A stretch of 24,000 nt of DNA, taken from positions 629,241-653,240 of the forward strand of contig NZ_LR130785.1 of the NCBI RefSeq assembly GCF_900626135.1. The letters run 5' to 3'. A program made the position numbers and the translations under genes. This document shows, in pieces, positions 3,192-23,128 of the stretch. The DNA comes from Senegalia massiliensis (GTDB lineage: Bacteria > Bacillota > Clostridia > Tissierellales > SIT17). The notes beneath the pieces were generated by a model, which did not search any database, was not told the DNA's origin, and saw only the letters and a program-made list of their open reading frames with translations. Position 1 is the stretch's first letter. The number at the start of each line of letters is the position of its first letter.

Positions 3192-3246
3192 AATTCAAGT
3201 TAATTAGACCTTATGAGTAATTAAGTATGATAATTTTAAAATAATA

Positions 3247-3274: not shown

Positions 3275-3281
3275 GAAATTA

Positions 3282-3307: not shown

Positions 3308-3322
3308 GAAAGGCTAGATACG

Positions 3323-4255: not shown

Positions 4256-4266
4256 AAATTTATATC
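4238..4266 (+). promoter_or_regulatory. Possible internal promoter (TTGATA-17 nt-TATATC) inside the yhfZ 3' end
   Basis: The spacing is good but the -10 is weak. It abuts repeat copy 2, with different geometry from copy 1. Confidence 0.3.
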
Positions 4267-4291
4267 AATATACAAAAAAATGTACATTGAA
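4266..4291 (+). promoter_or_regulatory. 26-nt repeat copy 2, candidate operator in the yhfZ-yhfY intergenic region
   Basis: Perfect copy of 3282-3307. It ends 13 nt before the yhfY ATG, just 5' of the SD GGAGGTG. Confidence 0.5.
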
Positions 4292-4304
4292 TGGAGGTGT
4301 AATT

Positions 4305-4664: not shown

Positions 4665-4678
4665 AAGGAGGTAGTATA

Positions 4679-5041: not shown

Positions 5042-5057
5042 ATAGAGGAGTGAAAAA

Positions 5058-6338: not shown

Positions 6339-6346
6339 AATTATAT

Positions 6347-6384
6347 TTCTAACAAAGTCAAGGATATCCTTGACTTTGTTAGAA
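6347..6384. other. 38-nt perfect palindrome / intercistronic stem-loop (18-bp arms)
   Basis: ttctaacaaagtcaagga-ta-tccttgactttgttagaa. It is not followed by a T tract on the + strand (gataaaaaagg), so it is not a canonical terminator. Confidence 0.7.
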
Positions 6385-6404
6385 GATAAAAAAGGGGAAT
6401 TAGT

Positions 6405-7520: not shown

Positions 7521-7538
7521 ATAAACAGGAGGTATAAA

Positions 7539-8447
7539 ATGAGTATAATAACTGTAAATGGAGAGATAGATAAAAATAGCTTAGGGTCGACTTATATACA
7601 TGAGCATTTAAGTGTTGATTTATCAGCTCATAAAAAAGATCCTGATACTAATTTTGATGATGTGGAATCATTGATTGATGAGATTAAAAATATAAAAAGT
7701 AAAGGCATAGATAGTATTGTAGAAGTTACAAATAGAGGTATGGGCAGAAATATAGAAGTAATGAAAAGAGTAGCAGATGAAACCGGAATCAATGTTATAG
7801 CTAGTACAGGATTTTATAAGGAACCTTTCTTGCCATCATATGTATATGAAATGGAAGAAAAAGAGTTAAGTAAGCTTTTAATAAAAGATCTTACAGAAGG
7901 AATAGATAATACTGATATTAAAGCCCATGTAATAGGTGAAATTGGTACTAGTAAGGATACTATGACAGATATGGAACATAAAATATTTAGAGTAGCAGCT
8001 AGAGCTCATCTTGAAACTGGTAGAGTTTTCTCTACTCATACTACATTAGGAACCTATGCTATAAAACAAATAGAATTTATGAAAAAACACAATATTGATC
8101 TTAGTAAAGTAGTTATAGGTCATTTAGATTTAAACTGTGATTCCGATTATCATTTAAGAATTGCTGATAATGGATGCTATTTAGCTTTTGATACAATAGG
8201 AAAAAATAATTATGAGAAAGATGAAGTACGTGTTAAATATATAAAGAATTTAATAGATAGAGGACATTTAAATCAAATAGTACTTTCTCAAGATATAACT
8301 AGAAAATCTCATTTAAAAATGAATGGTGGTATTGGTTATGATCATTTAATAGATAATTTTATACCAAAGCTTTTAGAGGCAGGAATAACACAATCACAAA
8401 TTGATAAAATGTTAAAAGAAAATCCACGTGAATTATTGGATATATAG
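7539..8447 (+). CDS. php: Phosphotriesterase homology protein (Php/YhfV-like amidohydrolase-superfamily enzyme)
   Basis: 302 aa. HxH metal motif TYIHEHL. VIGEIGTS carries a Glu where phosphotriesterases have the carbamylated Lys, as in E. coli Php. The further ligands STHT, IGHLD and LSQD are present. Confidence 0.82.
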   Translation: MSIITVNGEIDKNSLGSTYIHEHLSVDLSAHKKDPDTNFDDVESLIDEIKNIKSKGIDSIVEVTNRGMGRNIEVMKRVADETGINVIASTGFYKEPFLPSYVYEMEEKELSKLLIKDLTEGIDNTDIKAHVIGEIGTSKDTMTDMEHKIFRVAARAHLETGRVFSTHTTLGTYAIKQIEFMKKHNIDLSKVVIGHLDLNCDSDYHLRIADNGCYLAFDTIGKNNYEKDEVRVKYIKNLIDRGHLNQIVLSQDITRKSHLKMNGGIGYDHLIDNFIPKLLEAGITQSQIDKMLKENPRELLDI

Positions 8448-8458
8448 GGGGAATATAG

Positions 8459-9565
8459 ATGAAAGCATATCCTATAGAGACTATTAATATAGATAAGGCA
8501 AAAGAAAAACAATTTAAACTAGTTGATATAATTCATCAACATTTTGATGGTTATGAATTTCTCCAAAATGGAGATATGGGTGTAGTGCCAGGTGTAGGTG
8601 GTCCAAAATATACTAGAAAAGTAGAAAGTGTATTAGCAGATTTTTTTGGTTCAGAAGATGCTGTTTTAGTTCGTGGCTCAGGTACTGGAGCTATAAGAAA
8701 TGTAATGAATACAGTATTAAAACCTAATCAAAAAATATTAATTCATGATGCACCAATATATCCAACTACAAAAGTAATAATTGATAGTATGGGAATTGAA
8801 ACTATTAAAGTTAATTTTAATAATATTTCAGAAAAAGATGAAGAAAAAATTAGAAATATAGACTTTGCTCTAGTTCAACATTCAAGGCAAAAATTAGATG
8901 ATAGCTATAATTTAGAAGATGTAATAAACAAAATTAAAAAGGTTAATAAAAATATAAATATATTAGTAGATGATAACTATGTTGTAATGAAAGCTGATAA
9001 AATAGGCGTAGAACTTGGAGCAAGTGCAAGTGCTTTTTCATTATTCAAATTATTAGGACCAGCAGGAATAGGTTGTGTTGTTGGTAATACAGAAATAATA
9101 GAGAAAATAAGGAATATTAACTATTCTGGCGGTAGTCAAGTTCAAGGATATGAAGCTATGGATGCTTTAAGGTCATTAGTATATGCACCTGTTTCACTAG
9201 CAATTCAAGCTGAAGAAGGAAATAAAATTATAGATACATTAAATTCAGGAAAAATTAAAGGGGTAAAATCTTCTCTTATTGCAAATGCACAATCAAGAGT
9301 TATATTAGTTGAGTTTGATGAACCTATAGCAAAAAAAGTTTTAGAATATAGTTCAAAATTAGGGGCAGCTCCTTACCCAATTGGAGCTGAATCTAGATAT
9401 GAAGTTACTGCTATGTTTTATAGAGTTTCTGGGACGTTTTTGAAATCTAATCCTAAGTTAGAAGATTATATTATACGTATAAATCCAATGAGAGCAGGTT
9501 CAAAAACTGTTCTTAGAGTATTAGAGCAAGCTATAGAAATGGCCCTTCAAAGAGGTGATAATTAG
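8459..9565 (+). CDS. yhfS: YhfS-like fold-type-I PLP-dependent enzyme
   Basis: 368 aa, against about 361 aa for E. coli YhfS. Motifs: GSGTGAIRN, VDDNY and SAFSLFKLLGP (candidate PLP lysine). Confidence 0.65.
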   Translation: MKAYPIETINIDKAKEKQFKLVDIIHQHFDGYEFLQNGDMGVVPGVGGPKYTRKVESVLADFFGSEDAVLVRGSGTGAIRNVMNTVLKPNQKILIHDAPIYPTTKVIIDSMGIETIKVNFNNISEKDEEKIRNIDFALVQHSRQKLDDSYNLEDVINKIKKVNKNINILVDDNYVVMKADKIGVELGASASAFSLFKLLGPAGIGCVVGNTEIIEKIRNINYSGGSQVQGYEAMDALRSLVYAPVSLAIQAEEGNKIIDTLNSGKIKGVKSSLIANAQSRVILVEFDEPIAKKVLEYSSKLGAAPYPIGAESRYEVTAMFYRVSGTFLKSNPKLEDYIIRINPMRAGSKTVLRVLEQAIEMALQRGDN

Positions 9566-10741
9566 ATGTTTTTAGATATGACAATAAAAAGAAATGAAAA
9601 CTTAATAAAATCTGCAATAGACCTTCATAAAAATGGTCTAATTAAACCTAATTCATATGTATTAGATATAGATTCTATAAGAGAAAATGCATCTAAATTA
9701 GCTAAGAAAGCAAAAGAATTAAATATAGAATTATATATGATGACAAAACAAATAGGTAGAAATCCTAAAGTTGCTGAAATAATAGCAGAAAGTGGTATCA
9801 AAAAAGCTGTAGCTGTAGACCCATGGGAAGCTATAAGACTAGCAGAATCTGGAGTGAAACTTGGAAATGTAGGTCATTTGGTGCAAATACCTACTAGTAT
9901 GATTAGACAAATTCTATCTTATAAGCCTGAAGTAATAACAGTATTTACATTAGATAAAGCAATAGAAATTTCAGAACAGGCTATAAAATTAGGAATGGTT
10001 CAAGATATATTATTAAAAGTTGTAGGAGAAAATGATAGATTATATCCAGGACAAATAGGTGGATTTAAAGAAAAAGAACTTATACAATATGCAGATAAAA
10101 TAAGAAAATTAAAGGGAGTAAATATAGTAGGAGTTACTGCTTTTCCATGCTTTTTATATAATTATGAAGCGAATAAAATAGAACCTACAAAAAATGCTCA
10201 TACAGCTATAAGATGTGCAAACATGTTAAAGGAAAAGTTAGATATCAACATAAAACAAGTAAATATTCCTAGTGCTAATACTATAGCTTCATTACCATTA
10301 TTAAAAGATATGGGAGGTACTCATGGAGAGCCAGGTCATGCTTTAACAGGTACTACACCTCTTCATGGTGACAATATATTAGAAGAAAAACCTGCTATGG
10401 TTTATGTAAGTGAAATATCACATTGTTTTGATGATAAGGCATATGTATATGGTGGTGGCTTTTATAGAAGATCTAGAATGAAAAAGGCTATGGTAGGTAA
10501 AGATTTTGAAAAGATGAAAGAAAATATATTTGAAATAGAAGAAATTGATCCTGAAGCTATAGACTATTACGGTACGTTAAAACTTGGAAATAAAAGTGTA
10601 GAAGTAGGAGATACAGTAATATATGCTTTTAGAACACAAATATTTGTAACAAGAAGTGAAGTAGTTTTAGTTGAAGGAATACAAAAAAACAATCCTAAAA
10701 TTATTGGAGTTTATGATAGTCAAGGAAATGAAATACGATAA
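9566..10741 (+). CDS. yhfX: YhfX-like fold-type-III PLP enzyme (alanine-racemase N-terminal-domain family)
   Basis: 391 aa, against about 387 aa for E. coli YhfX. YMMTKQIGRNP holds the candidate PLP lysine. The ATG directly abuts the yhfS stop (TAG ATG). Confidence 0.65.
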   Translation: MFLDMTIKRNENLIKSAIDLHKNGLIKPNSYVLDIDSIRENASKLAKKAKELNIELYMMTKQIGRNPKVAEIIAESGIKKAVAVDPWEAIRLAESGVKLGNVGHLVQIPTSMIRQILSYKPEVITVFTLDKAIEISEQAIKLGMVQDILLKVVGENDRLYPGQIGGFKEKELIQYADKIRKLKGVNIVGVTAFPCFLYNYEANKIEPTKNAHTAIRCANMLKEKLDINIKQVNIPSANTIASLPLLKDMGGTHGEPGHALTGTTPLHGDNILEEKPAMVYVSEISHCFDDKAYVYGGGFYRRSRMKKAMVGKDFEKMKENIFEIEEIDPEAIDYYGTLKLGNKSVEVGDTVIYAFRTQIFVTRSEVVLVEGIQKNNPKIIGVYDSQGNEIR

Positions 10742-10758
10742 ACAAGGTGGTGACAAAA

Positions 10759-11967
10759 TTGAAAAAAAGAGCAATAATATTAATATTAGATAGCTTAGGT
10801 GTTGGATATATGGATGATGTAGAAGAAACTAGACCTCAAGATATAGGTGCAAATACTTTTAAGCATATATTAGATAATGCTAAAAATATAGAAATACCTA
10901 ATTTAGAAAAGCTAGGCATAAATAAGATAGTAAAGCATAATAGACTTAAGGAAACTAAAAATAAAGCTAGTTATGGTAAATTAAATCTTAAGCACTATGG
11001 AGCAGATAGTTATGCAGGTCATCAAGAGATTATGGGAACTGATCCAAAAAAACCTTTGATGAAACCTTTTGTGTATTATATAGATAAAGTAAAATCAGCT
11101 TTAGAAGAGGCAGGATATAAGGTTCAAATACCAAATAAAGAAAAACCATATATATTGGTAAATGAATTAGTAGTAGTTGCGGACAATATAGAGACAGATT
11201 ATGGACAGATATATAATATAAGTGCTCCACTTGATTATATATCCTTTGACGAAGTTATGGAAATTGGAAAGATTGTAAGAAAAAATGTAGAAGTGAATAG
11301 AGTTATAGCTCTAGGTGGTAGAGATGTAAAACTAGAACAATTAATTGATAGTATAGAGCAAAGGGAAGATGGTTTAGTTGGTGTTAATTCTCCTAAATCA
11401 GGAGTGTATAAATCAGATTATCATGCAAGGCATATGGGATATGGTGTTGACCCTGAAAAACAAATTTCATCTATATTATCAAATTCAGATAAAGAAGTTA
11501 CTTTGATTGGCAAAATGCAAGATGTTATTGAATGTAGTGATGCAACTAAAATACCTGCAGTTGATACAGAACTAGTAATGGAAAAAATATTAGTTAGTCT
11601 TGATAATATGAATGAAGGGTTAATATCAGCTACAGTTCAAGAAACAGATTTAAGAGGACATGCACAAGATGTAGAAGGATATGCTGAAAAGATAATGATT
11701 GTAGATAAATATTTAGAAAGCATATTAGAAAAAATGACTGACGAAGATATTTTATTTATAAGCGCAGATCATGGAAATGACCCTACAAGTGATAATAGTC
11801 AACATACTAGAGAAAAGACATTTTTATTGGTATATGGTAAAAATATAAAAAATGTTAATATAGGTGAAAGAAAAACTCTCTCAGATATATCAGCTACAAT
11901 AGCAGATTATTTTAAGGTAAATAAGCCTGAGAATGGTGAAAGTTTTTATGATATGTTAGTTGAGTGA
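10759..11967 (+). CDS. yhfW: YhfW-like phosphopentomutase-family (alkaline-phosphatase superfamily) mutase
   Basis: MKKRAIILILDSLGVGYM resembles the DeoB N-terminus. GADSYAGHQE aligns with DeoB GKDTxTGHWE, placing Ser at the phospho-acceptor position. ISADHGNDPT matches the ADHGxDP metal motif. TTG 10759 is 8 nt after AAGGTGG; the track start is GTG 10747. Confidence 0.75.
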   Translation: MKKRAIILILDSLGVGYMDDVEETRPQDIGANTFKHILDNAKNIEIPNLEKLGINKIVKHNRLKETKNKASYGKLNLKHYGADSYAGHQEIMGTDPKKPLMKPFVYYIDKVKSALEEAGYKVQIPNKEKPYILVNELVVVADNIETDYGQIYNISAPLDYISFDEVMEIGKIVRKNVEVNRVIALGGRDVKLEQLIDSIEQREDGLVGVNSPKSGVYKSDYHARHMGYGVDPEKQISSILSNSDKEVTLIGKMQDVIECSDATKIPAVDTELVMEKILVSLDNMNEGLISATVQETDLRGHAQDVEGYAEKIMIVDKYLESILEKMTDEDILFISADHGNDPTSDNSQHTREKTFLLVYGKNIKNVNIGERKTLSDISATIADYFKVNKPENGESFYDMLVE

Positions 11968-12304: not shown

Positions 12305-12502
12305 ATGAATGGTACAGTAAAATGGTTTAACGCAGAAAAAGGATTTGGATTTATCACAGGAGAAGACGGAAAAGATGTATTCGCTCACTTTTCTCAAATT
12401 CAAAAAGATGGTTTCAAAACTTTAGAAGAAGGTCAAGAAGTAGAATTTGACGCAGTTGAAGGACAAAAAGGTCTTCAAGCAGAAAATATCGTTGCTAAAT
12501 AA
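12305..12502 (+). CDS. Cold-shock protein, CspA family (single CSD)
   Basis: 65 aa. RNP1 KGFGFI and RNP2 VFAHF motifs are present. RBS AGGAGG. Confidence 0.95.
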
Positions 12503-12512
12503 TTGATATTTC

Positions 12513-12546
12513 AACCCTAGGATATAATATATTCTAGGGTTTTTTG
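12513..12546 (+). terminator. Rho-independent terminator of csp
   Basis: The stem aaccctagga/ttctagggtt is followed by tttttg. Confidence 0.8.
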
Positions 12547-12724
12547 ATGCCTATAATTCTAATTTTGTGACTAAAGGTAGAAATGAAGGCATAAGTTATT
12601 TTATGTATCAGTATTTATCATTAGCAGAACAAATAGTAGAACCACATAAGGAATATCACATTATAATAATGGAATTATATGATAGTTTTTAATATTGTTT
12701 GACATGGTAGTTTTATTATCCCTA

Positions 12725-12733
12725 TGGTATAAT
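12725..12733 (+). promoter_or_regulatory. Possible extended -10 promoter (TGgTATAAT) for the two-component operon
   Basis: TGgTATAAT at 12725-12733. No acceptable -35 at 17 nt; the TTGACA at 12699 is 23 nt away. Confidence 0.35.
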
Positions 12734-12846: not shown

Positions 12847-14427
12847 TTGATAAAAGTTATTATAGCAGACGATGAAAAAAGAATATTAAAACTCATAGAA
12901 AAATTAATTCAATGGGAAAAATTAGGTCTACAAATTGTAGGAAAAGCTAATGATGGTATAGAAGCAATAGAGCTTATAAAAGAAAAGAAGCCAAATATAG
13001 TTATTACTGATATTCGTATGCCTGGTTATGATGGCTTAGAAATGATAGAAAGAGCAAGAAATATAGATGAAAATTTACAGTTTATTATCATAAGTGGATA
13101 TGAACAATTTGAATATGCTAAAAAGGCAATAGGCTTTGGAGTAAAGGATTATTTATTAAAACCTATAAATAAACAAAAACTCACTAGAACATTAATTAAT
13201 GTAAAAAAACATATCAAAGAAAATATTGATATAGAAATTGTAAAGAAAGATGTTAATTTAATAAGAACATCTTTTTTAAATAATGCTCTTTTTAAAAATG
13301 AAGGATTAAATAATACTAATGTATCTCAAGTTAATGAAAAATATCATTTTAACTTTATAGAAAAATATTTTAATGTTGTTTTATTTAAAATTGATTATAA
13401 TACAAAACTATATAATGATATAACAGTTATGACTACAGAAATAGTTAATATAATCAAAGAAAACTTAAAATCAGATGTAAATGAATGTGAAATTATAACA
13501 AACAAAAATAATATATATTTAATATTAAATTATAATTTAAAACAATTAGAAAATATTGAAATATCCATACAACAGGTGCATAAAAAAATAATTGAGTATA
13601 TTATCGGAATAAAGAATTTTCAAGTAACCATTTCATATGGAAGTCAAGCTCAGAAAATTAATGATCTAAATATTTCTTTCCATGATTCTAATTCAATTAT
13701 TGAAGATAGAATACTTTATGGTAAAAACAAAATATATAAATATAAAGAAATATTACCTATAAAAAAAGAGGTAGAAGATATATTTTATGTTTTTTTCAAA
13801 AGATTTATAAAGTATGTGGAAATGTTAGATTATGCAAAAATAGAATATAGTTTTATGAAATTTAAGCAAGATATAAGCAATATGCCTTTAAGAGGAATAA
13901 ATTTAAAAGATTTTTTTCAGGAACTATTTAAAGCATACTATTTAGTATTAAAAAACAATAAATTCAAAAAGAATAATTTAAGTGAAGAACATAAAGATAT
14001 TAAAAATATTATTGATAATTCAGATTCAATAGACGGATTATTTAGTGATTCATTACAATATTTATTAGAAGATATAAATTCAATAACTAAAAAAAGCTTT
14101 CAAAATAATATGATAGAAATAATAAAAGCTAAAGAATTTATAGAAAAAAATTATATGGAAAATATAAAGTTAGAAGACGTAGGAAACTATATAGGATTTA
14201 ATCCAAGTTATTTTAGTAGTGTTTTTAAAAAAGAAACAGGCACTTCCTTTGTAGAATATCTTTCAATGGTAAGAATAGAAAAAGCCAAAGAATTATTAAA
14301 GGAATCTGATCTTAAGATTCAAGATATATCTAGTATGATTGGCTATAATGATTCTAAATATTTTACTAAGACATTTATAAAATATAGTGGCTTAAAACCA
14401 AAAGAATATAGAAAACTATTCGTGTAG
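12847..14427 (+). CDS. Response regulator, REC plus AraC-type HTH output (YesN-like) with an unusually long middle region
   Basis: REC motifs DD(8-9), D55 in VITDIRMPGYDG, and LLKP. The C-terminal AraC HTH pair runs YFSSVFKKETG...YFTKTFIKYSGLKPKEYR. TTG start is 9 nt after AGGAG. About 300 Asn/Lys/Ile-rich residues lie between the two domains. Confidence 0.88.
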   Translation: MIKVIIADDEKRILKLIEKLIQWEKLGLQIVGKANDGIEAIELIKEKKPNIVITDIRMPGYDGLEMIERARNIDENLQFIIISGYEQFEYAKKAIGFGVKDYLLKPINKQKLTRTLINVKKHIKENIDIEIVKKDVNLIRTSFLNNALFKNEGLNNTNVSQVNEKYHFNFIEKYFNVVLFKIDYNTKLYNDITVMTTEIVNIIKENLKSDVNECEIITNKNNIYLILNYNLKQLENIEISIQQVHKKIIEYIIGIKNFQVTISYGSQAQKINDLNISFHDSNSIIEDRILYGKNKIYKYKEILPIKKEVEDIFYVFFKRFIKYVEMLDYAKIEYSFMKFKQDISNMPLRGINLKDFFQELFKAYYLVLKNNKFKKNNLSEEHKDIKNIIDNSDSIDGLFSDSLQYLLEDINSITKKSFQNNMIEIIKAKEFIEKNYMENIKLEDVGNYIGFNPSYFSSVFKKETGTSFVEYLSMVRIEKAKELLKESDLKIQDISSMIGYNDSKYFTKTFIKYSGLKPKEYRKLFV

Positions 14428-14436
14428 GTGTGTGAA

Positions 14437-15450
14437 ATGAAATTTAAAAAAGATAATTATTATTTATTAGATAGAATATGGATACTTTTTATTATTAATT
14501 TTGTAGCAAATATTATAGTTTTTATATATTTATTATTTAATATTGAAACTATAAGTAATTATATTTTTTTAGCATTATGGTCTATTTTTATAATTGGAAT
14601 AGTTTATATTTCATATAAATGGGTCTATGAACCACATAAAAAGATAGCTAAAGTTTTAAAATTATTTTATAAAGGAGATATCTTCAAAGGTGTATTTAGT
14701 CTTAGAGTGCATATAAGTCATGAAACATATAAGACCTTTGCAAAGTTTAGAGAAATAATAGATACAAAAGAACTTATAGAAGGTTCCAAAAAACATGCTG
14801 AATATTTAGCACTTCAAAATCAAATCAACCCTCATTTTCTATATAATACCCTTGAAGCAATAAGGAGTGAGGCATTAATAGAAGAGGTTGATAGTATAGC
14901 AGATATGACAGAGTCTCTAGCAACATTTTTTAGATATACAATTTCAAATATATCTAAACTTGTTACTCTTAGTGATGAATTAGAAAATTTGAAAAATTAT
15001 TATAAGATTCAAAAGTTTAGATTTGATGATAAAATAAATTTAAATATTAAATATGAGATAGATGATATAGGACAAGCATTGAGAGCTAAAATCCCTAAAT
15101 TAACTTTACAACCTATTTGTGAGAATGCAATATTTCATGGATTAGAAACAAAGGTTGGTAAAGGAGAAATAACTTTAAGAATTAGAGCTACTGAAAAAAG
15201 ACTTATTATTTTAATATCAGATAATGGTGTAGGAATTGATGAAAAAAAAGTTGATAAAATAAATAAAAAACTTAGAGGAGCATCCTTAGAATATATGAAA
15301 AAAGATAGTAATAATCAAGGTGGTATAGCCTTGATTAATGTAAATAACAGAATAAAACTTATTTTTGGTGATGAATATGGTATTTATATGTATAGTAGGT
15401 TAGGTGCTGGAACTGATGTTGAAATAACTATACCATTTGTATTAGATTAA
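14437..15450 (+). CDS. Sensor histidine kinase, YesM/LytS-type (His_kinase PF06580-like plus HATPase_c), two TM helices with a loop of about 7 residues
   Basis: H-box LQNQINPHFLYNTLEAI, N-box ENAIFHGL, G-boxes DNGVGI and GGIALINV. TM1 ILFIINFVANIIVFIYLLF and TM2 YIFLALWSIFIIGIVYISY are separated only by NIETISN. The track start GTG 14428 abuts the upstream stop; ATG 14437 follows TAGGTG. Confidence 0.85.
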   Translation: MKFKKDNYYLLDRIWILFIINFVANIIVFIYLLFNIETISNYIFLALWSIFIIGIVYISYKWVYEPHKKIAKVLKLFYKGDIFKGVFSLRVHISHETYKTFAKFREIIDTKELIEGSKKHAEYLALQNQINPHFLYNTLEAIRSEALIEEVDSIADMTESLATFFRYTISNISKLVTLSDELENLKNYYKIQKFRFDDKINLNIKYEIDDIGQALRAKIPKLTLQPICENAIFHGLETKVGKGEITLRIRATEKRLIILISDNGVGIDEKKVDKINKKLRGASLEYMKKDSNNQGGIALINVNNRIKLIFGDEYGIYMYSRLGAGTDVEITIPFVLD

Positions 15451-15478: not shown

Positions 15479-16888
15479 ATGAATGGAGAAATTTTAAGAA
15501 TAGAAAATGTTAGTAGGAAGATTGACGGTATTACCTATTTAAATAATATAAATTTTAATATAAGAAAAGGAGAAATATTAGGGTTATTGCCTCTTGATAA
15601 TCATGGTAAAGAACAGCTTATTGAGTTAATTATTAAAAATTTAAATATTGATTATGGAAGAGTATATTTTGATGAAAAGCTTGTAAATTATTATGAATAT
15701 AGTGATATGCAATATAATGAGGTTTATGTTATTGATAAAAACACAAAATTAATCTCTGGGTTGAAAGTTATTGATAATATCTATGTATTAAATAATACTC
15801 TAAATCAGTTTATTATAAATGAAAATATATTAAGGAAAAAGGCAAAATCTATTTTTGAACATTTTGATTTAGACATTAATCCAGATAAATATATTTCTGA
15901 TTTATCTAAATTTGAGAAAGTTGTTGTTGAAGTTATAAAGGCTGTTATAAATGGTGCTAAATTAATAATTTTAAACGAATTATCTAATTTTCTAAGTATA
16001 AATGAGTTATATAATTTTCAGAAATTAATTAAATATTATTCTAAGAAAGACATTTCATTTCTTTACATGGCAAATCATCATGAAGAAGCATTTAAGATAT
16101 GTAATAGAGTTTGTCTTTTAGAAGATGGGAAAATAGTAAAAGTGATAGAAAAAAATGATTATTCTGATGAAATTATGTTACCTTATATAGTTGAGTTTGA
16201 TAGTAATACAAATTCTAATATATCAGATAATGAAAATACTATTATTGGATTTGAAGATTTTACTACCACTAATGTTTATAAGCTCAATATAAGGATAAAT
16301 AAAGGTGAATGTATAACCATACTTGATAAAGATAATAAAGGAATTCAAGATATAGTTGAATTTTTAAAGGGAAATCTGACACTTATTGATGGGAATATAA
16401 TCTTTAATAGAAAAACAATTAAATCTATAAGAAATCTTAATTCTCTTATAGAAAATGAAATATTATTTATACCAGAAAATCCAATAGATAATTTTTTGTT
16501 TTTTAATATGTCTTATTTAGAAAATCTAATGTTTCTTTTAGAACAAAAGCTAAATAATAATATTTCATTTAGAAAGAAAATAAAAATACTTAAAGAAAAA
16601 TATAAAATATTAGAAGATGTAGATATAGATGAAAATGATATTTCTAATTTAAGTAAAAAATCTCTGTACGATTTAATATATTTTAAAGTTTATGAATTTA
16701 AACCTAAGTTAGTTTTTCTAATGCAGCCTTTTTCTGGTGCAGATATGTATTTAAGAGCTAGAATAATTCAATTAATAAATAAACTTAAAAATGAAGGTAT
16801 AACAATTATAATTCTTGCTGTAAGCTTATCAGATACTTTAACTGTATCAGATAGACTTATAACTATAAAAGATGATAGTATTTTTTGA
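15479..16888 (+). CDS. Degenerate tandem-NBD ABC ATPase paralog (RbsA/MglA-like fold, catalytic motifs lost in both halves)
   Basis: It aligns along its length with the next gene, but the motifs differ. Walker A is LPLDNHGKEQ against GENGAGKST, and LDKDNKGIQ against GLMGAGRTE. Q-loop is VIDK against IHQE. Signature is LSKFEK against LSVSKQ, and LSKKSLYD against LSGGNQQK. Walker B is LIILNELS against ILIMDEPT, and LVFLMQPF against IVIFDEPT. Confidence 0.8.
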   Translation: MNGEILRIENVSRKIDGITYLNNINFNIRKGEILGLLPLDNHGKEQLIELIIKNLNIDYGRVYFDEKLVNYYEYSDMQYNEVYVIDKNTKLISGLKVIDNIYVLNNTLNQFIINENILRKKAKSIFEHFDLDINPDKYISDLSKFEKVVVEVIKAVINGAKLIILNELSNFLSINELYNFQKLIKYYSKKDISFLYMANHHEEAFKICNRVCLLEDGKIVKVIEKNDYSDEIMLPYIVEFDSNTNSNISDNENTIIGFEDFTTTNVYKLNIRINKGECITILDKDNKGIQDIVEFLKGNLTLIDGNIIFNRKTIKSIRNLNSLIENEILFIPENPIDNFLFFNMSYLENLMFLLEQKLNNNISFRKKIKILKEKYKILEDVDIDENDISNLSKKSLYDLIYFKVYEFKPKLVFLMQPFSGADMYLRARIIQLINKLKNEGITIIILAVSLSDTLTVSDRLITIKDDSIF

Positions 16889-16958
16889 AAACCTTTTTAA
16901 AATCTAATGAATGTCCCCCTAAATCAAAAGAATATCTACCTCGTCGTATTATTAGTTA

Positions 16959-16967
16959 TGGTACTAT
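16959..16967 (+). promoter_or_regulatory. Possible activator-dependent promoter of the ABC operon (TGgTACTAT, no -35)
   Basis: Extended -10 at 16959-16967. The -35 position reads cctcgt, consistent with dependence on an AraC-type activator. This is weak evidence. Confidence 0.3.
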
Positions 16968-16997
16968 GTATTTAAATAATAATAACAAAGATATTTA

Positions 16998-18554
16998 ATG
17001 AAGAAAGTAGGGGTTCTTTTGAGTAATTATGCTGTTAAAATAGAAAACGTTTCCAAAAGTTTTCCAGGTGTTAAGGCACTTGATAATGTATCATTCGATT
17101 TGAAATCTGGAGAAGTCTTAGCTTTACTTGGTGAAAATGGAGCAGGGAAGTCTACTCTTATGAAAATATTATCAGGAGTTTATACAAAAGATAGTGGTAC
17201 TATAAATATATTTGGTGAAACTATTGAAGATATGAATCCAGTTAAAGCACAGGAATTAGGTATTGCAATTATACATCAGGAGTTAAATATGTGTGATCAT
17301 TTAACTGTAGCTCAAAATATTTTTTTAGGTAGAGAGATATCTAAAAAGGGTGTTTTGTCTGAGAAAAAGATGAATATAGAAGCAAAAGAAATATTAAATA
17401 AATTAAATATAGCTATAGATCCAGAGGCTTTAGTAGGAGACTTATCTGTATCAAAGCAACAGATGGTTGAAATCGCAAAGGCTCTATCAACTAATGCAAA
17501 AATACTTATTATGGACGAACCTACATCTGCTTTAACTTCTAAAGAAATAGATGATTTGTTTAAAATAATAAAAAAATTGAAATCAGAAGGTCATGGAATA
17601 GTATACATATCTCATAGATTAGAAGAATTAGAACATATAGTGGATAGAGTTACTGTATTAAGAGATGGACAATATATTACTTCTTTAGATTTTAAAGAAA
17701 CTACACTTAAAGAAATTATATCCTATATGGTTGGAAGAGAAATAAAAGAAAAATTTCCTAGAATCAAAAGTGATGTGGGAAAGAAAATATTCGAAGTTAA
17801 GAATTTAAGTGCTGGTAATTTAGTAAGAGATATTAATTTTTCAGTATTTGAAGGAGAAATAGTTGGAATAGCTGGTTTAATGGGGGCAGGAAGAACTGAG
17901 ATGACTAGAGCAATATTTGGAGCAGATTCTAAACGTTCAGGAAAAATTTTCATTGACGGCGTTGAAGTAAGTATTAATAAGCCTATAGATGCTATTAAGT
18001 CAGGAATAGTTCTTGCTCCTGAAGATAGAAAAAATGATGGATTATGTACAAAGCTTAGTATAAGAGAAAATATCTCTCTTCCAAATCTTGACTTATTAGC
18101 TCATAAATTCGGTATAGTGAATAGCAAAAAAGAAGAGGAAATGATTCAAAAAGCAGTAGAAAATTTAGATATAAGACTTGCAAGTGCTGAAGTTAATGCC
18201 GATAGTCTATCTGGTGGAAATCAGCAAAAAGTTGTAGTAGGTAAATGGCTTTCAAGAAATTCAAGAATTGTAATTTTTGACGAACCTACAAGAGGAATAG
18301 ATGTAGGATCTAAAGTTGAAATTTATAATTTGATGAATGAATTAAAAAGCAAGGGTATTGGAGTACTTTTTGTTTCTTCTGAGATGCCAGAAGTGTTAGG
18401 TATTAGTGATAGAATTTTAGTTATGGCTGAAGGTAAAATAACTAAAGAACTTGATATAAAAGATGCTACACAAAATATTATTTTAGAGTATGCTACTAAA
18501 TTTGACAAAAAGATTAACAATGAACAGATTAACAAAGTGGAGGCGAGTATTTAA
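16998..18554 (+). CDS. Sugar ABC transporter ATP-binding protein, CUT2 family, two intact NBDs (RbsA/MglA-like)
   Basis: GENGAGKST, LSVSKQQ, ILIMDEPT and ISHRL in NBD1. GLMGAGRTE, LSGGNQQK and IVIFDEPTRGID in NBD2. The true start may be TTG 17019 (MSNYAVKIENVSKSF), 5 nt after TAGGGG. ATG 16998 has no SD. Confidence 0.92.
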   Translation: MKKVGVLLSNYAVKIENVSKSFPGVKALDNVSFDLKSGEVLALLGENGAGKSTLMKILSGVYTKDSGTINIFGETIEDMNPVKAQELGIAIIHQELNMCDHLTVAQNIFLGREISKKGVLSEKKMNIEAKEILNKLNIAIDPEALVGDLSVSKQQMVEIAKALSTNAKILIMDEPTSALTSKEIDDLFKIIKKLKSEGHGIVYISHRLEELEHIVDRVTVLRDGQYITSLDFKETTLKEIISYMVGREIKEKFPRIKSDVGKKIFEVKNLSAGNLVRDINFSVFEGEIVGIAGLMGAGRTEMTRAIFGADSKRSGKIFIDGVEVSINKPIDAIKSGIVLAPEDRKNDGLCTKLSIRENISLPNLDLLAHKFGIVNSKKEEEMIQKAVENLDIRLASAEVNADSLSGGNQQKVVVGKWLSRNSRIVIFDEPTRGIDVGSKVEIYNLMNELKSKGIGVLFVSSEMPEVLGISDRILVMAEGKITKELDIKDATQNIILEYATKFDKKINNEQINKVEASI

Positions 18555-19570
18555 TGGGGACTAAAAGTAACACTAGTAAAATTAAAAAGATTTTTTCACG
18601 AAGAGGTATGGGCCAAGTAATTACAGTTTCAATAGGACTTGTAGCATTAGTCATCGTATTTGGATTATTAAACCCAACTTTTTTCTCTAGTAGAAACATA
18701 TCAAACTTATTAAGACAAATTGCACCAATTATACTTATAGGTGTAGGTCAATCATATGTATTGATTACTGCAAATATAGATTTGTCAATAGGTTCAGTTG
18801 TTGGAATGAGTACTATGATTTCTGCTACATTAATGTCAAAAGGTATGGATCCTTTGGCTGCTGTATTTATAACTTTTATTGCAGCGTTAGGAATAGGATT
18901 ATTAAATGGATTACTTATATCAAAGGCTAAGCTTCCATCATTTATAGCAACATTAGGTACTATGACTATAGCAAGAGGTATTGCACAAATTGTTAATAAT
19001 AACTATAATACAGATTCTATTGGATCACATGCTGATGGATTTAGAGATTTATTTTATTATGGAGAAACATTTGGACTATATAATACAATTTGGATAGCAT
19101 TAGGAATTTGGTTAGTATTTAACTTTATTCTTAGTAGAACTAGAACAGGTAGACATATTTATGCGGTAGGTAGTAATATGAGTGCTGCACACCTTTCAGG
19201 AGTTAATATATCTAGTACCATAACAAAAGCATATGTAGTAAGTTCTGTGTGTGCTGCAACAGTAGGTCTTATAACTACAGCTACAAGTGGTATGGGAACT
19301 ATGGATGCAGGTACTTCATATGAATTATATGCAGTAGCAGCTTCTGTAATAGGAGGTATAAGTACATTAGGAGGACAAGGAATACTTTTAGGAACTGTAG
19401 TAGGGGCATCTATATGGGGAGTGTTACAAAATGGACTTCAATTTGCTGGTGCACCTGTAGCTATTAGGAATATAGTAATAGGTATTATTGTTATAGTATC
19501 TGTTCTTCTTGACATAGTTGTAAGGGCTAATAAAAATAAATCTAAGTCTAAGCAAAAAGCAAAATCTTAA
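18554..19570 (+). CDS. Sugar ABC transporter permease, CUT2 family (RbsC-like)
   Basis: 338 aa and polytopic. It has RbsC-like blocks: IDLSIGSV, the coupling region TRTGRHIYAVGSN, and GGISTLGGQG. The ATG overlaps the upstream TAA by 1 nt (TAATG), which suggests translational coupling. Confidence 0.9.
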   Translation: MGTKSNTSKIKKIFSRRGMGQVITVSIGLVALVIVFGLLNPTFFSSRNISNLLRQIAPIILIGVGQSYVLITANIDLSIGSVVGMSTMISATLMSKGMDPLAAVFITFIAALGIGLLNGLLISKAKLPSFIATLGTMTIARGIAQIVNNNYNTDSIGSHADGFRDLFYYGETFGLYNTIWIALGIWLVFNFILSRTRTGRHIYAVGSNMSAAHLSGVNISSTITKAYVVSSVCAATVGLITTATSGMGTMDAGTSYELYAVAASVIGGISTLGGQGILLGTVVGASIWGVLQNGLQFAGAPVAIRNIVIGIIVIVSVLLDIVVRANKNKSKSKQKAKS

Positions 19571-19621: not shown

Positions 19622-20554
19622 ATGAAAAAGAAAATATTGGCAATGATGTTAATTGTATTTCTAAGTATAACAGTAATAGTAGGATGTTCTGATGATTCAG
19701 ACAGTGGTAGTGGTGATTCTCACAAAGTATATCTAATAACTATGGATCAAATGGATCAACATTGGGTATCAGTAGATGAAGGAGCTAAAGAAGCAGCAGA
19801 TGAATTAGGTAATGTAGATTATGAATGGTTAGCACCTGACGTAAAAGATGATGCAAAACAAATAGAAAGTATAAATAATGCAATTGCAGGTGGAGCTGAA
19901 GCAATATTATTAGCAGCTAATGGACCAGATGCTGTAACTCAAGCACTTAAGGAAGCAGAAAAAGAAGGTATAAAAATTGTTTATGTTGATTCACCAGCTG
20001 ATTTTCCAGCAGTTCAAACTTTAGCAACAGATAATGAAGCAGCAGGAAAACTTGCAGGGGAAGAAATGAAAAAAGCATTAGAAGAAAAAGGTATTAATGC
20101 AGGTAAAATTGGTGTAGTAAGTGTTAATGCATCTACAGATTCTACTATACAAAGAGAAAAAGGTTTTAGAAGTGCATTTGAAGGAACAGATTTTGAAATA
20201 CTAGAAACTCAATATGGAGATGGTGATGCAGCAAAATCAAAAGATATAGCTGCTAACTATATAACCCAAGATGTAGTAGGAATATTTGGTGGAAATGAAG
20301 GTTCTACTGTTGGAACTGGAAATGCTATAAAAGAAGCAGGTGGAGAAGTTATAGGAGTAGGTTTTGATAAATCTGATACAATATTACAAATGATTGAAGA
20401 AGGACATATACTTGCTACTATGTCACAAAATCCTGATGTAATGGGTTATGAAGGAGTAAAGACAGCAGTAGATGCACTTGAAGGAAAAGAAATTAATGAA
20501 GAATATGTAGATACAGGTGTTTCTGTAATAAACAAAGAATCACTTGAAAACTAA
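19622..20554 (+). CDS. Sugar-binding lipoprotein of the ABC importer (RbsB-like, periplasmic-binding-protein type I)
   Basis: Signal peptide with lipobox VIVGCS, followed by a Ser/Asp/Gly linker. The fold appears PBP type I. RBS GGAGGG. Confidence 0.88.
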   Translation: MKKKILAMMLIVFLSITVIVGCSDDSDSGSGDSHKVYLITMDQMDQHWVSVDEGAKEAADELGNVDYEWLAPDVKDDAKQIESINNAIAGGAEAILLAANGPDAVTQALKEAEKEGIKIVYVDSPADFPAVQTLATDNEAAGKLAGEEMKKALEEKGINAGKIGVVSVNASTDSTIQREKGFRSAFEGTDFEILETQYGDGDAAKSKDIAANYITQDVVGIFGGNEGSTVGTGNAIKEAGGEVIGVGFDKSDTILQMIEEGHILATMSQNPDVMGYEGVKTAVDALEGKEINEEYVDTGVSVINKESLEN

Positions 20555-20600: not shown

Positions 20601-20622
20601 AACTATATATGAGGTGATATTA

Positions 20623-21273
20623 TTGAAAAATAAAACAGAAAGAATATTAAATGAGTTAATTGAAAAATATCCAAAATTAGATTATTTAGAAGAAAGATTA
20701 AGAAATTTAATAGAAAAAACAGTAAAATCAATAAGAGGAAATGGTAAAATATTAGTATGTGGGAATGGTGGTAGTGCCTCTGATAGTGAACATATAGTAG
20801 GAGAATTATTGAAAAAATTCTATATTGATAGACCAATTGAAGATGATTTTAAAAATAATTTGAGAAAAAATTGTAATGAATATGAATATGAATATATGAG
20901 TAGTAATATGGAAGGAGCAATTCCAGCAATTTCCCTTGTTTCTCAAACAACATTTTTAACAGCATATGGTAATGATGTGAATTTTGATATGATTTATGCT
21001 CAACAAGTATATGCATATGGAAATGAAAATGATATATTGATAGCTTTATCAACATCTGGGAACTCTTCAAATGTTTATTATGCTGCAAAAGCAGCAAAAT
21101 CAAAAGGAATGATGGTTATATCATTAACAGGAGAAGATGGTGGAAAATTAAAAAGCACTAGTGACATATTGTTAAATGTACCTTTAGATGAAACATATCA
21201 AGTTCAAGAGTATCATCTTCCTCTATATCATTTTATATGTAGGGCATTAGAATATGAAATTTTTGGAGGTTAA
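20623..21273 (+). CDS. gmhA: SIS-domain sugar-phosphate isomerase of the GmhA (sedoheptulose-7-P isomerase)/DiaA family
   Basis: It aligns with E. coli GmhA blocks: KILVCGNGGSASDSEH, AISL...YGNDVNFDMIY, LIALSTSGNSSNV and MVISLTGEDGGKL...QEYHL. An insert of about 25 aa is present (IEDDFKNNLRKNCNEYEYEYMSSNMEG). TTG 20623 is 6 nt after GAGGTG; the track start is GTG 20614. Confidence 0.7.
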   Translation: MKNKTERILNELIEKYPKLDYLEERLRNLIEKTVKSIRGNGKILVCGNGGSASDSEHIVGELLKKFYIDRPIEDDFKNNLRKNCNEYEYEYMSSNMEGAIPAISLVSQTTFLTAYGNDVNFDMIYAQQVYAYGNENDILIALSTSGNSSNVYYAAKAAKSKGMMVISLTGEDGGKLKSTSDILLNVPLDETYQVQEYHLPLYHFICRALEYEIFGG

Positions 21274-21276
21274 TTT

Positions 21277-22227
21277 ATGTTTGTAATAGGATATGATATA
21301 GGAGGTACAAAAACTGCTTTTATATTATCTCAAGTAAATGATTCTGGAATAAAAATTCTCCAAAGAGAAGAATTTAAAACAACAAGAGATTGGAAAAATG
21401 TTATAGGACAGTTAATGGAAAAATCAAAAATAGCTATAAAAGATAACGATATATCTTTAGATGATTTGAAATTAGGAATTTCTTGTGGAGGACCTCTAGA
21501 TAATAAAAAAGGACTTATATTATCTCCACCTAATCTTCCTGGTTGGGATAATGTTCCTGTAGTAGATTATATTCATGAAAAAATAGGTGTAAAACCAAAC
21601 TTGCAAAATGATGCAGATGCATGTGCTTTAGCTGAATGGAGGTATGGTGCTGGTGTAGGCTATGAAAATTTAATTTTTCTTACATTTGGTACAGGGTTGG
21701 GAGCAGGTCTTATATTAAATAATAAGCTATATACTGGAGCATCTAATATGGCAGGAGAAGTAGGACATATTAGATTAGAAGATGAAGGACCTATTGGATA
21801 TGGTAAATCTGGAAGCTTTGAAGGGTTTTGTAGTGGTGGAGGAATAGCTCAATTAGCTCAATTTGAAGCTAAATCTCTAAGAAACAAAGGATTAAGAGCA
21901 TCATTTGATAAAAGAGAAATTAAAGATATAACAACAAAAGATGTATCTATAGCTGCAGAATTAGGAAATAAAGATGCTTTAGATATATTTAAGACTTCTG
22001 GTAGATATTTTGGAAAAGGATTATCTATACTTATAGATATATTAAATCCTGAAATTATAGTTGCTGGAAGTATTTATAAAAGAGCAGGTGAATTCTTAAA
22101 AGAAGAAATGTACAATGAAATTGAGAAGGAAGCACTTAAATCATCAAGTAAAGTAGTTAAAATAGTACCTGCAATGTTAGGTGAAGAAATAGGAGACTAT
22201 GGTGCTATAGTAACAGCTTTAGGGTAA
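21277..22227 (+). CDS. ROK family sugar kinase (glucokinase-like, substrate unknown)
   Basis: N-terminal ATP motif IGYDIGGTKTA. NDADACALAE. ROK signature region GTGLGAGLILNNKLYTG...GEVGH. It lacks the Cys-rich zinc motif of the next gene. Confidence 0.85.
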   Translation: MFVIGYDIGGTKTAFILSQVNDSGIKILQREEFKTTRDWKNVIGQLMEKSKIAIKDNDISLDDLKLGISCGGPLDNKKGLILSPPNLPGWDNVPVVDYIHEKIGVKPNLQNDADACALAEWRYGAGVGYENLIFLTFGTGLGAGLILNNKLYTGASNMAGEVGHIRLEDEGPIGYGKSGSFEGFCSGGGIAQLAQFEAKSLRNKGLRASFDKREIKDITTKDVSIAAELGNKDALDIFKTSGRYFGKGLSILIDILNPEIIVAGSIYKRAGEFLKEEMYNEIEKEALKSSSKVVKIVPAMLGEEIGDYGAIVTALG

Positions 22228-22249
22228 TTTAAATTAAGGGAGGCTTACT

Positions 22250-23128
22250 ATGTTAGGATCAATTGAAGCAGGTGGTACTAAATTTGTATGTGCTGTAAGC
22301 GATGAGGAATTTAATTTAATTGATAAGACATCATTTCCAACTACAGATCCAAAATCAACACTAAAAGAAATATTTAATTTTTTTGATAAATACAAAGATA
22401 TAAAATCTATTGGTATAGGATCATTTGGTCCTATAAATATTAATAAAAGCTCAGATAAATATGGATACATTACATCAACTCCTAAAACTAAATGGAAAAA
22501 TTTTAATTTTCTTGGAGAGATGAAAAAACACTATAATATACCTATTAGTTGGACTACAGATGTTAATGCAGCATGTTTAGGAGAATATTATCTAGGAAGT
22601 GCAAAAGGAAGTAATAGCTGCATTTATCTTACTGTAGGAACAGGTATTGGTGGAGGAGCTATAATAAATGGAGATTTTATGGAAGGATTTAGTCACCCAG
22701 AAATGGGACATATTTTAATTAAAAAGCATGTACAAGATAAATATGAAGGATTTTGTCCTTACCATGGAGATTGCCTGGAAGGACTTACAGCAGGACCTTC
22801 AATAGAAAAAAGATATGGTGTAAGTGGAAACAAATTAGATAAAAATCATGAAGTATGGAAGTTTATTTCTTATTATTTAGCTCAAGCTCTAGTAAATTAT
22901 ACATTAATAATAAGACCAGAAAAGATAATATTAGGTGGAGGAGTAATGAATCAAGATCATATGTTAAGTTTAGTAAAAAAGGAATTTAAATCATTACTTT
23001 CAGATTATGTAGAAGTACCTAATATAGATGATTATATAGTAAAACCTTCATTAAAAGATAATGCAGGTATTATTGGAGGTTTAGTATTAGCTTCTAAAGA
23101 ATGTGGATATTGTGGAAAAACATATTAA
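22250..23128 (+). CDS. ROK family fructokinase/mannokinase-type kinase (GmuE/Mak-like)
   Basis: MLGSIEAGGTKFVCAV closely resembles the N-terminus of Bacillus GmuE/YdhR fructokinase. Zinc motif HPEMGH...CPYHGDCLEG. RBS AAGGGAGG. Confidence 0.85.
   Translation: MLGSIEAGGTKFVCAVSDEEFNLIDKTSFPTTDPKSTLKEIFNFFDKYKDIKSIGIGSFGPININKSSDKYGYITSTPKTKWKNFNFLGEMKKHYNIPISWTTDVNAACLGEYYLGSAKGSNSCIYLTVGTGIGGGAIINGDFMEGFSHPEMGHILIKKHVQDKYEGFCPYHGDCLEGLTAGPSIEKRYGVSGNKLDKNHEVWKFISYYLAQALVNYTLIIRPEKIILGGGVMNQDHMLSLVKKEFKSLLSDYVEVPNIDDYIVKPSLKDNAGIIGGLVLASKECGYCGKTY

Follow-up and report, generated by a model that had tools for sequence, protein, structure and literature searches.

The 24-kb window of the Senegalia massiliensis genome analyzed here (24,000 nucleotides, numbered from its first letter) contains, at positions 15479 to 16888, a gene for a 469-residue relative of the tandem ATPases of CUT2 sugar importers. 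The encoded protein, referred to below as PSE, is 100% identical to WP_130805855.1, which is annotated as “ATP-binding cassette domain-containing protein.” Its gene lies between those of a two-component system and those of a CUT2 importer with an ATPase of its own. The original prediction, made from the window sequence, described PSE as catalytically dead in both of its nucleotide-binding domains (NBDs), a description that holds at the motif level for the window protein and for its family. The genes around PSE are as follows.

12847-14427, + strand: YesN-type response regulator, 526 aa (REC domain, middle region of ~270 aa, AraC-type helix-turn-helix [HTH] domain)
14428-15450, + strand: short YesM-type histidine kinase, 340 aa (Pfam PF06580, 1.4e-26; PF02518, 5.7e-10)
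15479-16888, + strand: PSE, dead tandem-NBD CUT2 ATPase paralog, 469 aa (NBD1, ~1-235; variable linker, ~236-255; NBD2, ~256-469)
16998-18554, + strand: genuine CUT2 (RbsA/XylG-like) tandem ABC ATPase (Pfam ABC_tran, 190 bits in two stretches)
18554-19570, + strand: CUT2 permease, RbsC-like, BPD_transp_2 (Pfam, 3e-38; NCBIfam GguB, AlsC, and RbsC, 184 to 186 bits)
19622-20554, + strand: substrate-binding lipoprotein, Peripla_BP_4, with the lipobox IVGC in its N-terminal sequence (Pfam, 3.6e-53)
20614-21273, + strand: GmhA-like SIS isomerase (Pfam, NCBIfam)
21277-22227, + strand: ROK kinase (Pfam, NCBIfam)
22250-23128, + strand: ScrK-like ROK fructokinase (Pfam, NCBIfam)

The regulator gene starts with TTG, with the Shine-Dalgarno sequence AGGAG, and its product matches the Pfam families Response_reg (6.9e-26), HTH_18 (1e-19), and HTH_AraC (9e-18). 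The genuine ATPase scores 582 bits against the NCBIfam xylose and ribose ATPase models. Its translation most likely begins at TTG 17019 and not at ATG 16998, because of the Shine-Dalgarno sequence AAAGTAGGGG and because its orthologs open with M..YIVE. The gap of 109 nt originally placed between the PSE and ATPase genes does exist, but, given this start, its length is probably 130 nt. The permease is encoded by a single gene and is therefore presumably a homodimer, and the lipoprotein is the sole extracytoplasmic ligand-binding protein at the locus. Many orthologous loci also have SIS and ROK genes next to the module, and the sugar-catabolic genes at 20614 to 23128 probably belong to the induced operon.

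PSE protein and its family

The PSE reading frame is intact (469 codons with an ATG start, AAAAGG 6 to 7 nt upstream, and a stop codon), and its product aligns with the neighboring ATPase in a single BLASTP block (residues 6 to 468 against 13 to 481; 23% identity, 50% positives, E value of 6e-35), which bears out the proposed collinearity of the two proteins. Every motif string quoted in the original prediction is found in PSE. In NBD1, PLDNHGKEQ takes the place of GENGAGKST, VIDKN that of IIHQE, LSKFEK that of LSVSKQQ, and LIILNEL that of ILIMDEP. In NBD2, LDKDNKGIQ stands for GLMGAGRTE, LSKKSLYD for LSGGNQQK, VFLMQP for VIFDEP, and ILAVSLS for FVSSEMP. The Walker A consensus GxxGxGK[ST] is absent from both NBDs, where the family consensus is LxCxNxHGK and LLDxNN, respectively. 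The Walker B pattern hhhhDE with its catalytic Glu is replaced by LIILNE in NBD1 and VFLMQP in NBD2, and PSE has neither the LSGGQ signature nor the Q-loop Gln (its Q-loop reads IDKN). The P-loop glycines and Ser/Thr, the A-loop aromatic residue, and the Walker B Asp are also replaced.

The original prediction had the ATP-binding and hydrolysis motifs replaced in both halves. This is borne out, but NBD1 retains the Walker A Lys, the Walker B Glu, and the H-loop His (in HGK, NE, and NHH). These surviving residues vary across the family, with the Walker A Lys present in ~70% of the members. At the Walker B site, NBD1 varies among NE, DE, RD, and KD, and Q416 and P417 of NBD2 are nearly invariant. 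The predicted loss of the Q-loop Gln applies to NBD1, but at the NBD2 position the real ATPase already has Glu (PEDR versus PENP). In genuine CUT2 ATPases, site 2 is already degenerate, leaving one consensus site (PMC11466899). PSE, judged by its motifs, appears to have lost both.

Pfam ABC_tran recognizes only NBD1 of PSE, with 48 bits (cut-off, 25), versus the 190 bits in two stretches of the neighboring ATPase. The NCBIfam models YtfR, XylG, AraG, RbsA, and MglA match PSE over its full length with 124 to 147 bits against cut-offs of 689 to 850, so that it falls below the curated cut-off of every CUT2 ATPase equivalog tested; the neighboring ATPase scores 484 to 582 bits on these models. The AlphaFold2 model of PSE, built with 119 sequences (pLDDT, 86.9; pTM, 0.78), is a tandem NBD, with two copies of the NBD fold (RecA-like core plus helical subdomain) arranged head to tail. 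Its best PDB matches in Foldseek are the fused double NBDs of Mycobacterium tuberculosis DppD and OppD and the MCR A2 component (TMq of 0.72 to 0.77). Searched against the PDB sequences, the family profile matched only single NBDs of other transporters and no solved relative of PSE.

By these comparisons, PSE is a CUT2 ATPase paralog by descent that lacks all the catalytic features by which members of that group are recognized. Like the tandem ATPases RbsA, XylG, MglA, AraG, and YtfR, it is a collinear two-NBD polypeptide of ~470 to 500 aa, with full-length NCBIfam matches, the fused-NBD fold, and the Q-loop-adjacent and helical-subdomain segments. Unlike them, it has lost both sites, is missing the C-terminal ~35 residues, and is encoded in the regulator operon rather than with the permease.

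A word-indexed search yields more than 120 relatives of PSE with 40 to 91% identity and ~480 aa in length, and a pattern scan limited to one genome per species finds 90, of which 80 loci were fetched. The carriers include Tissierellia, Clostridia (Oscillospiraceae, Lachnospiraceae, Caproiciproducens, Tepidanaerobacter, Hydrogenispora, and Proteiniclasticum) and, among the Bacilli, Paenibacillus, Bacillus sp. HNG, and Robertmurraya. A profile search of 1.84 billion representatives returns at least 150 PSE clusters at 50% identity, all with at least 305 bits. By extrapolation, real ATPases would score ~140 bits on the PSE profile; the family therefore extends past the 150 clusters listed. In sequence databases, its members carry such names as “ribose transport system ATP-binding protein,” [quoted passage not shown] and “sugar ABC transporter ATP-binding protein.” For PSE proteins, these transporter-ATPase names are almost certainly wrong, and they probably amount to a systematic misannotation.

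The PSE frame is intact in ~76 of the 80 genomes. Among the 80 loci, frameshifts in PSE are confined to L080 and L081, both from metagenome-assembled genomes (MAGs), and in L081 the permease is also broken; in a third MAG, L033, the split gene is that of the ATPase, not of PSE. Nei-Gojobori dN/dS values, calculated for 15 ortholog pairs (13 with unsaturated dS), are 0.05 to 0.28 for PSE, compared to 0.02 to 0.19 for the kinase and 0.03 to 0.18 for the real ATPase in the identical pairs. These low values, in the range of the kinase and the ATPase, point to purifying selection and, together with the intact orthologs, uphold the earlier argument for a retained function over decay.

The cognate ATPases of 69 loci hold GENGAGKST, IIHQE, ILIMDEPTSALT, YISHR, GLMGAGRTE, LSGGNQQK, FDEPTRGIDV, and VSSE at ≥90%, and the 76 PSE orthologs have conserved replacements of their own, e.g., NHHEEAF and QPFSxADMYLR. 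Identity to the window proteins across the loci is 38 to 57% for PSE versus 67 to 82% for the real ATPase, i.e., PSE evolves faster. In an alignment of 138 superfamily representatives, the Walker A remnants are the least conserved (entropy of 2.8 to 2.9; mean, 2.57), and the most conserved are the segments that follow the Q-loop in both halves (entropy of 2.0 to 2.1), with such residues as L91 (0.96), N100 (0.98), and N349 (1.0). From established ABC structures, we take these post-Q-loop segments to form the groove that receives the coupling helix of the membrane domain. The replacements at the former ATP sites differ between PSE subfamilies.

Subfamily C (P0371, P0375, P0376, and P0384) has a canonical or near-canonical Walker A motif in NBD1, e.g., GLLGAGKT or GLSGSGKT. 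P0376 and P0384 have neither the catalytic Glu nor the H-loop His, and their NBD2 is degenerate throughout; the two differ in the Q-loop Gln, which only P0384 retains. P0376 (L091/L092) shares the regulator-kinase-PSE context. Judging from its Walker A, this subfamily may represent an ATP-binding, nonhydrolyzing intermediate stage.

Gene order, promoter region, and kinase

A REC-AraC regulator (~537 aa) and a kinase of 334 to 369 aa are encoded directly 5′ of PSE in 73 of the 74 loci with enough upstream sequence, and the set of genes for ATPase, permease, and substrate-binding protein (SBP) lies directly 3′ in 64 of 66. In 68 of 76 loci, the kinase gene overlaps that of PSE or ends ≤33 nt before it; the spacing between PSE and the ATPase gene is typically 90 to 300 nt. 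PSE had been proposed to belong with the regulator and kinase and not with the transporter operon. The tight spacing on the kinase side, the wide, promoter-bearing gap on the ATPase side, and the persistence of the arrangement on rearrangement all agree with this assignment. Thus, the importer is 5′ of the regulator in L055 and L070, and PSE still follows the kinase; in these two loci and in L067, L088, and L090, PSE stays with the regulator and kinase with the importer sited elsewhere. L067 and L043 have PSE with no importer after it.

All eight remote representatives (27 to 36% mutual identity) have the triad of regulator, short kinase, and PSE beside a CUT2 importer. Their importer genes come in different orders (PSE-SBP-ATPase-permease or SBP-ATPase-permease-regulator-kinase-PSE), and the enzymes encoded next to the triads also differ (GH3, GH42, arabinofuranosidase, lyxose isomerase, and SIS/ROK). 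The suggested co-occurrence of PSE with short-loop YesM kinases is therefore seen in 73 of 74 loci and in 8 of 8 remote subfamily members when counted from PSE. Counted from the kinase, the best 120 homologs are all ~250 to 350 aa long, none of them of full YesM length, and 2 of 2 independent loci have the same layout.

L003 is the sole locus with PSE and an importer but no two-component system within 8 kb. In its sister L020, a URO-D-family gene (6840-7844) is inserted between the kinase and PSE genes, and L003 (194-7645) has this URO-D gene together with a LacI/GH57/CUT1 operon at the kinase/PSE junction. As the L020 insertion is at exactly this junction, L003 probably carries a larger one, and it was rejected as a weak case for a kinase-independent PSE. 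In the L003/L020 clade, NHHEEAF has become GN(H/P)QEL, and ADMYLR has changed in concert to ADMQLS. A kinase-binding patch formed by NHHEE (NBD1 H-loop) and ADMYLR (NBD2 D-loop) was considered and rejected: in the ABC architecture, the NBD1 H-loop and the NBD2 D-loop face each other across the NBD interface, which makes intramolecular covariation the simpler explanation.

Genes for methyl-accepting chemotaxis proteins adjoin the module in L003 (13904-15271), L043 (2095-4329), and L067 (9506-11338). Two of these three loci have no adjacent importer. The proximity of the chemotaxis genes could be a coincidence. L088 encodes an extra short Peripla_BP-type protein (3181-3945, 254 aa) just 5′ of the triad regulator, with the full importer further 5′.

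The noncoding features of the window that flank the regulatory operon, with the gene upstream of it, are as follows.

12305-12502, + strand: cspA-like gene, a cold-shock-like open reading frame of 65 aa in the 880-nt gap 5′ of the regulator
12513-12541, + strand: strong intrinsic terminator of the cspA-like gene (13-bp stem, then a T-run)
12699-12728, + strand: promoter-like site of the regulator-kinase-PSE operon (TTGACA, 18 nt, TATGGT; consensus match only)
16915-16945, + strand: putative response-regulator operator (distal box CCCCCTAAATCAAAA at 16915-16929; degenerate proximal box TCTACCTCG ~21 nt downstream)
16959-16967, + strand: predicted extended −10 TGGTACTAT of the transporter operon promoter (conservation in orthologous gaps)

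The terminator of the cspA-like gene is the upstream boundary of the regulatory operon. A terminator scan found none between the PSE and ATPase genes. A generic promoter scan of the window was uninformative (67 sites versus 65.5 expected from shuffles, with no enrichment), and k-mer conservation across orthologous gaps was used in its place. In the 64 orthologous gaps between PSE and the ATPase gene, CCCCTTA occurs in 35 (0.4 expected) and TGCTATA in 26 (1.5 expected). An anchored alignment of the gaps resolves the former into a direct repeat, CCCCyTaAtTCaAAA, with a register of ~21 nt, followed ~21 to 24 nt after the proximal box by the extended −10 TGcTATAcT (TGCTATACT in the orthologous gaps). 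The orthologous gaps are from L005 to L083; that of the window spans 16889 to 17018, and its operator is the only match in the 24 kb. Such a layout is expected of an AraC-type activator site that overlaps the −35. The YesN-type regulator probably binds at the conserved repeat. The position of the operator and −10 would assign PSE to the regulatory operon, 5′ of the promoter under regulation.

The 340-residue kinase consists of an N-terminal tail, transmembrane helix TM1, an outside loop of 7 residues, TM2, a HAMP-like linker, a His_kinase domain (with H136), and HATPase_c; its catalytic His, N, and G boxes are intact. Pfam finds only His_kinase and HATPase_c, with no HAMP match to the linker even at E = 10, so that “HAMP-like” refers only to its position and to the helix-connector-helix pattern of the AlphaFold2 model (helices 13 to 37 and 45 to 81, the latter reaching into the cytoplasm, a connector, helices 98 to 112 and 115 to 130, and then the H136 box). 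Hydropathy profiles show two hydrophobic helices joined by a loop of ≤8 residues in all 76 kinase orthologs, none of which has an extracytoplasmic sensor domain. With an outside loop of only 7 residues, the kinase cannot itself see the sugar. The N-terminal cytoplasmic tail is conserved, with a nearly invariant Y12 and an invariant R16, and so are P69, E72, K75, L79, F80, and G83 in the juxtamembrane region.

Possible role of PSE

In mirror-tree comparisons of 59 complete loci, the genes fall into two modules: PSE distances track those of the kinase (r = 0.92) and the regulator (0.86), and the permease, SBP, and ATPase track one another. In partial Mantel tests, r is 0.84 for PSE and kinase (p = 0.001, controlling for ATPase and permease) and 0.69 for PSE and regulator; the value for PSE and ATPase is 0.07. 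Co-evolution thus favors the kinase as the closest partner of PSE. The comparisons as a whole establish dead motifs in an intact predicted fold, purifying selection, a nearly invariant triad, a separate conserved promoter, and co-evolution with the kinase.

We consider it somewhat probable that PSE is a nonenzymatic descendant of a CUT2 ATPase that serves as an NBD-derived signaling subunit and couples a sensor-less kinase to the importer. The selection for a dead NBD, its association with a kinase that has no sensor, the separate promoter, the co-evolution with the kinase, and the conservation of the grooves all suggest that PSE is the input subunit of the kinase and uses its grooves to dock on a membrane partner. 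Binding of PSE to the kinase and its docking at the permease are inferred, as are the kind of signal and whether this signal activates or represses. PSE would be made with the kinase from a separate operon and remain bound to it, and its grooves would dock on the cis-encoded CUT2 importer from the cytoplasmic side, in the simplest form by taking the position of the ATPase on some of the permease dimers. When the binding protein docks with its sugar, or when transport is under way, a conformational change would pass to the kinase without the use of ATP, and the phosphorylated regulator would activate the direct-repeat promoter between PSE and the importer genes. Induction would extend to the complete importer (real ATPase, permease, and binding protein) and to the catabolic genes. 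With PSE in the motor position, no second binding protein would be needed, and the triad could be combined with importers of different sugars. The transporter-coupled sensing put forward in the original prediction draws comparative support from the cis-linkage, the lack of another sensor, and the retained coupling-groove segments, which are consistent with it.

A further proposal is more tentative, and we regard it as possible but doubtful: the SBP and permease, with a dead tandem NBD as their cap in place of the motor, would constitute a “pseudo-transporter” receptor independent of ATP, whose response to the ligand is read by the NBD-bound sensor-less kinase. Because such a receptor would borrow the importer's own SBP and permease, the specificities of sensing and uptake would be matched automatically, and because the triad could be plugged into any CUT2 importer, it could have spread across importers for different sugars. 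One locus, L087 (7001-10494; P0387), has the order PSE-SBP-permease, with a spacing of 18 nt between the SBP and permease genes and no ATPase gene in the locus, and may be a sensor-only pseudo-transporter.

Several observations count against the signaling-subunit explanation or its parts. The ATPase-less layout of L087 is a singleton, a metagenome scan having found no close relatives, and the nearest relatives of its PSE (P0306 and P0356) do have the ATPase. No covariation is detectable between PSE and the permease (partial Mantel r = 0.08, p ~0.1). That test has little power, as the permease evolves slowly and the coupling interface may be invariant, and a generic, conserved interface is what the motor position would entail. 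The correlations of distance matrices can also stem from a shared operon, expression level, or joint horizontal transfer instead of physical contact. The poor conservation of the kinase's transmembrane helices gives no backing to the idea that they make specific contacts with helices of the permease. The operator and promoter are predictions from conservation alone. Finally, the Walker A motif of subfamily C suggests that nucleotide binding may matter in some members.

The most serious competitor, although we consider it unlikely, holds that PSE is a kinase-bound cytoplasmic receptor for the imported sugar, a sugar phosphate, or a nucleotide, bound in the remodeled sites between the NBDs. Membrane-proximal elements of the kinase would then fill the grooves of the two NBDs, with the kinase dimer standing in for a small membrane domain, and the signal would be delivered by basal transport, not by the conformation of the transporter. 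Such a receptor would fit the strong co-evolution of PSE with the kinase and not the permease, the weak but nominally significant covariation of PSE with the SBP (partial r = 0.13, p = 0.018), the Walker A kept in NBD1 of subfamily C, and the conserved polar and aromatic motifs NHHEEAF, QPFSxADMYLR, FIPENP, and LVNYYEHS at the ATP-site positions of the main family. However, superfamily-wide, the P-loop remnants are the least conserved part and their replacements are subfamily specific, which would leave room for lineage-specific pockets; a single type of triad serves importers of evidently different sugars, which generic coupling fits better; and a membrane-anchored kinase with an NBD-like partner would be an odd choice for a cytoplasmic signal, usually the task of one-component regulators. 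Less plausible still, indeed improbable, is that PSE regulates transport and leaves the kinase unaffected, as a decoy or brake in competition with the real ATPase for the permease or by restricting uptake in some other way. The retained NBD fold and coupling-groove segments, the CUT2 importer encoded nearby, and L003, with its importer and no two-component system within 8 kb, would suit this role. It is hard to square with the near-invariant, often overlapping linkage to the regulator and kinase, which persists with the importer genes elsewhere, with the place of PSE in the regulatory operon, ahead of the regulated promoter, and with its co-evolution with the kinase; the kinase would be left without an input device, and L003 is probably explained by an insertion, as in L020.

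The two remaining alternatives concern the enzyme itself. PSE could be a working, or at least ATP-binding, energizing subunit with unorthodox motifs, for this importer or for another membrane partner, given that the Walker A Lys, Walker B Glu, and H-loop His survive in NBD1 of the window protein and that this half exceeds the Pfam ABC_tran threshold. The replacement of the P-loop, A-loop, Q-loop, both signatures, and the Walker B Asp, the lack of family-wide conservation of the survivors, and the fully competent ATPase gene next door in nearly all loci make this very improbable. As for a decaying duplicate, i.e., an unrecognized pseudogene, the loss of catalytic motifs and an evolution faster than that of the real ATPase are what one would expect of it, but the 1.4-kb frame is intact here and in nearly all the other genomes, the dN/dS values are low, and the family spans several classes of Bacillota with invariant residues of its own. 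The pseudogene reading is refuted by this evidence, and we give it next to no credence.

Related systems and other features of the window

The original prediction knew of no described sugar-sensing system with such a component, and a full-text literature search, with thin coverage of subscription journals, likewise found none, an absence that is not proof. Besides CuaDSR, the three-component sugar sensors of Firmicutes include XylFII-LytS-YesN and AraPST. CuaDSR of Ruminiclostridium cellulolyticum combines the binding protein SBP2 with a YesM/LytS-type kinase and a YesN-type regulator, encoded in a constitutively expressed regulatory operon (PMC3656788). Sensors of this type resemble the PSE module in having a PF06580 kinase and a REC-AraC regulator encoded at a sugar ABC importer with a third, accessory gene, and in having the target promoter in front of the importer genes (PMC3656788). 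However, their accessory component is a second extracellular binding protein and their kinase has a large extracytoplasmic domain that receives it, whereas the PSE module has a cytoplasmic dead NBD, a kinase loop of 7 residues, and one SBP.

The BceS kinase, which has no sensor domain of its own, receives its stimulus from the cis-encoded ABC system BceAB (PMC3023708, PMC11466899). Like the PSE-linked kinase, Bce-type kinases have two transmembrane helices with a minimal loop and an ABC system beside them. In the Bce case, the ABC system is a type VII exporter; its ATPase is active, and there is no additional pseudo-NBD. The Bce regulator belongs to the OmpR type, and the system responds to an antimicrobial peptide. 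The window locus does not have the BceB-type permease (10 transmembrane helices and a large extracellular domain), the BceA ATPase, or the OmpR-type regulator; it encodes a BPD_transp_2 permease, a binding-protein-dependent sugar importer, and a regulator with an AraC HTH.

A dedicated cytoplasmic adaptor that carries the state of a binding-protein-dependent ABC importer to a kinase is known from the PhoR-PhoU-PstSCAB system (PMC9239213, PMC4423584). The fold of PhoU is unrelated, and its binding partners are the active ATPase PstB and the PAS domain of PhoR. In the PSE module, by contrast, the adaptor candidate is a dead copy of the ATPase that matches only ABC_tran, and the kinase has no PAS domain. 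The module thus belongs to none of the three-component, Bce, or PhoU systems. In SUR1 of KATP channels and in heterodimeric exporters with a degenerate site, the ABC architecture serves regulation instead of transport, and consensus residues are missing from a nucleotide-binding site (PMC4699857, PMC12038006). Such proteins still bind nucleotides, and at least one of their sites is functional; in PSE, neither site is left, and a membrane domain is missing as well.

Sensor-less kinases are common, and most of them have no known input. A role of PSE as the signaling subunit would provide an answer for the short YesM-type kinases, a large group found in Clostridia, Tissierellia, and Bacilli. If true, it would make PSE a bacterial pseudoenzyme recruited from a transporter motor into signaling and would add a third route by which two-component systems are connected with sugar importers, the other two being extra binding proteins and PhoU-like adaptors. 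The operator-promoter region and the three-gene cassette might also be usable as a sugar-responsive switch in Firmicutes.

Elsewhere in the window, positions 3296 to 11967 hold an unrelated cluster that resembles the yhf genes of Escherichia coli. It encodes a YhfZ-like regulator, a PRD protein, a DUF2620 protein, the membrane protein YhfT, Php of the phosphotriesterase family, a YhfS-like aminotransferase, and a (YhfW-like) protein of the metalloenzyme superfamily. Genes for a nucleoside hydrolase, an M20 peptidase, and a GATase1-like protein lie 5′ of this cluster.

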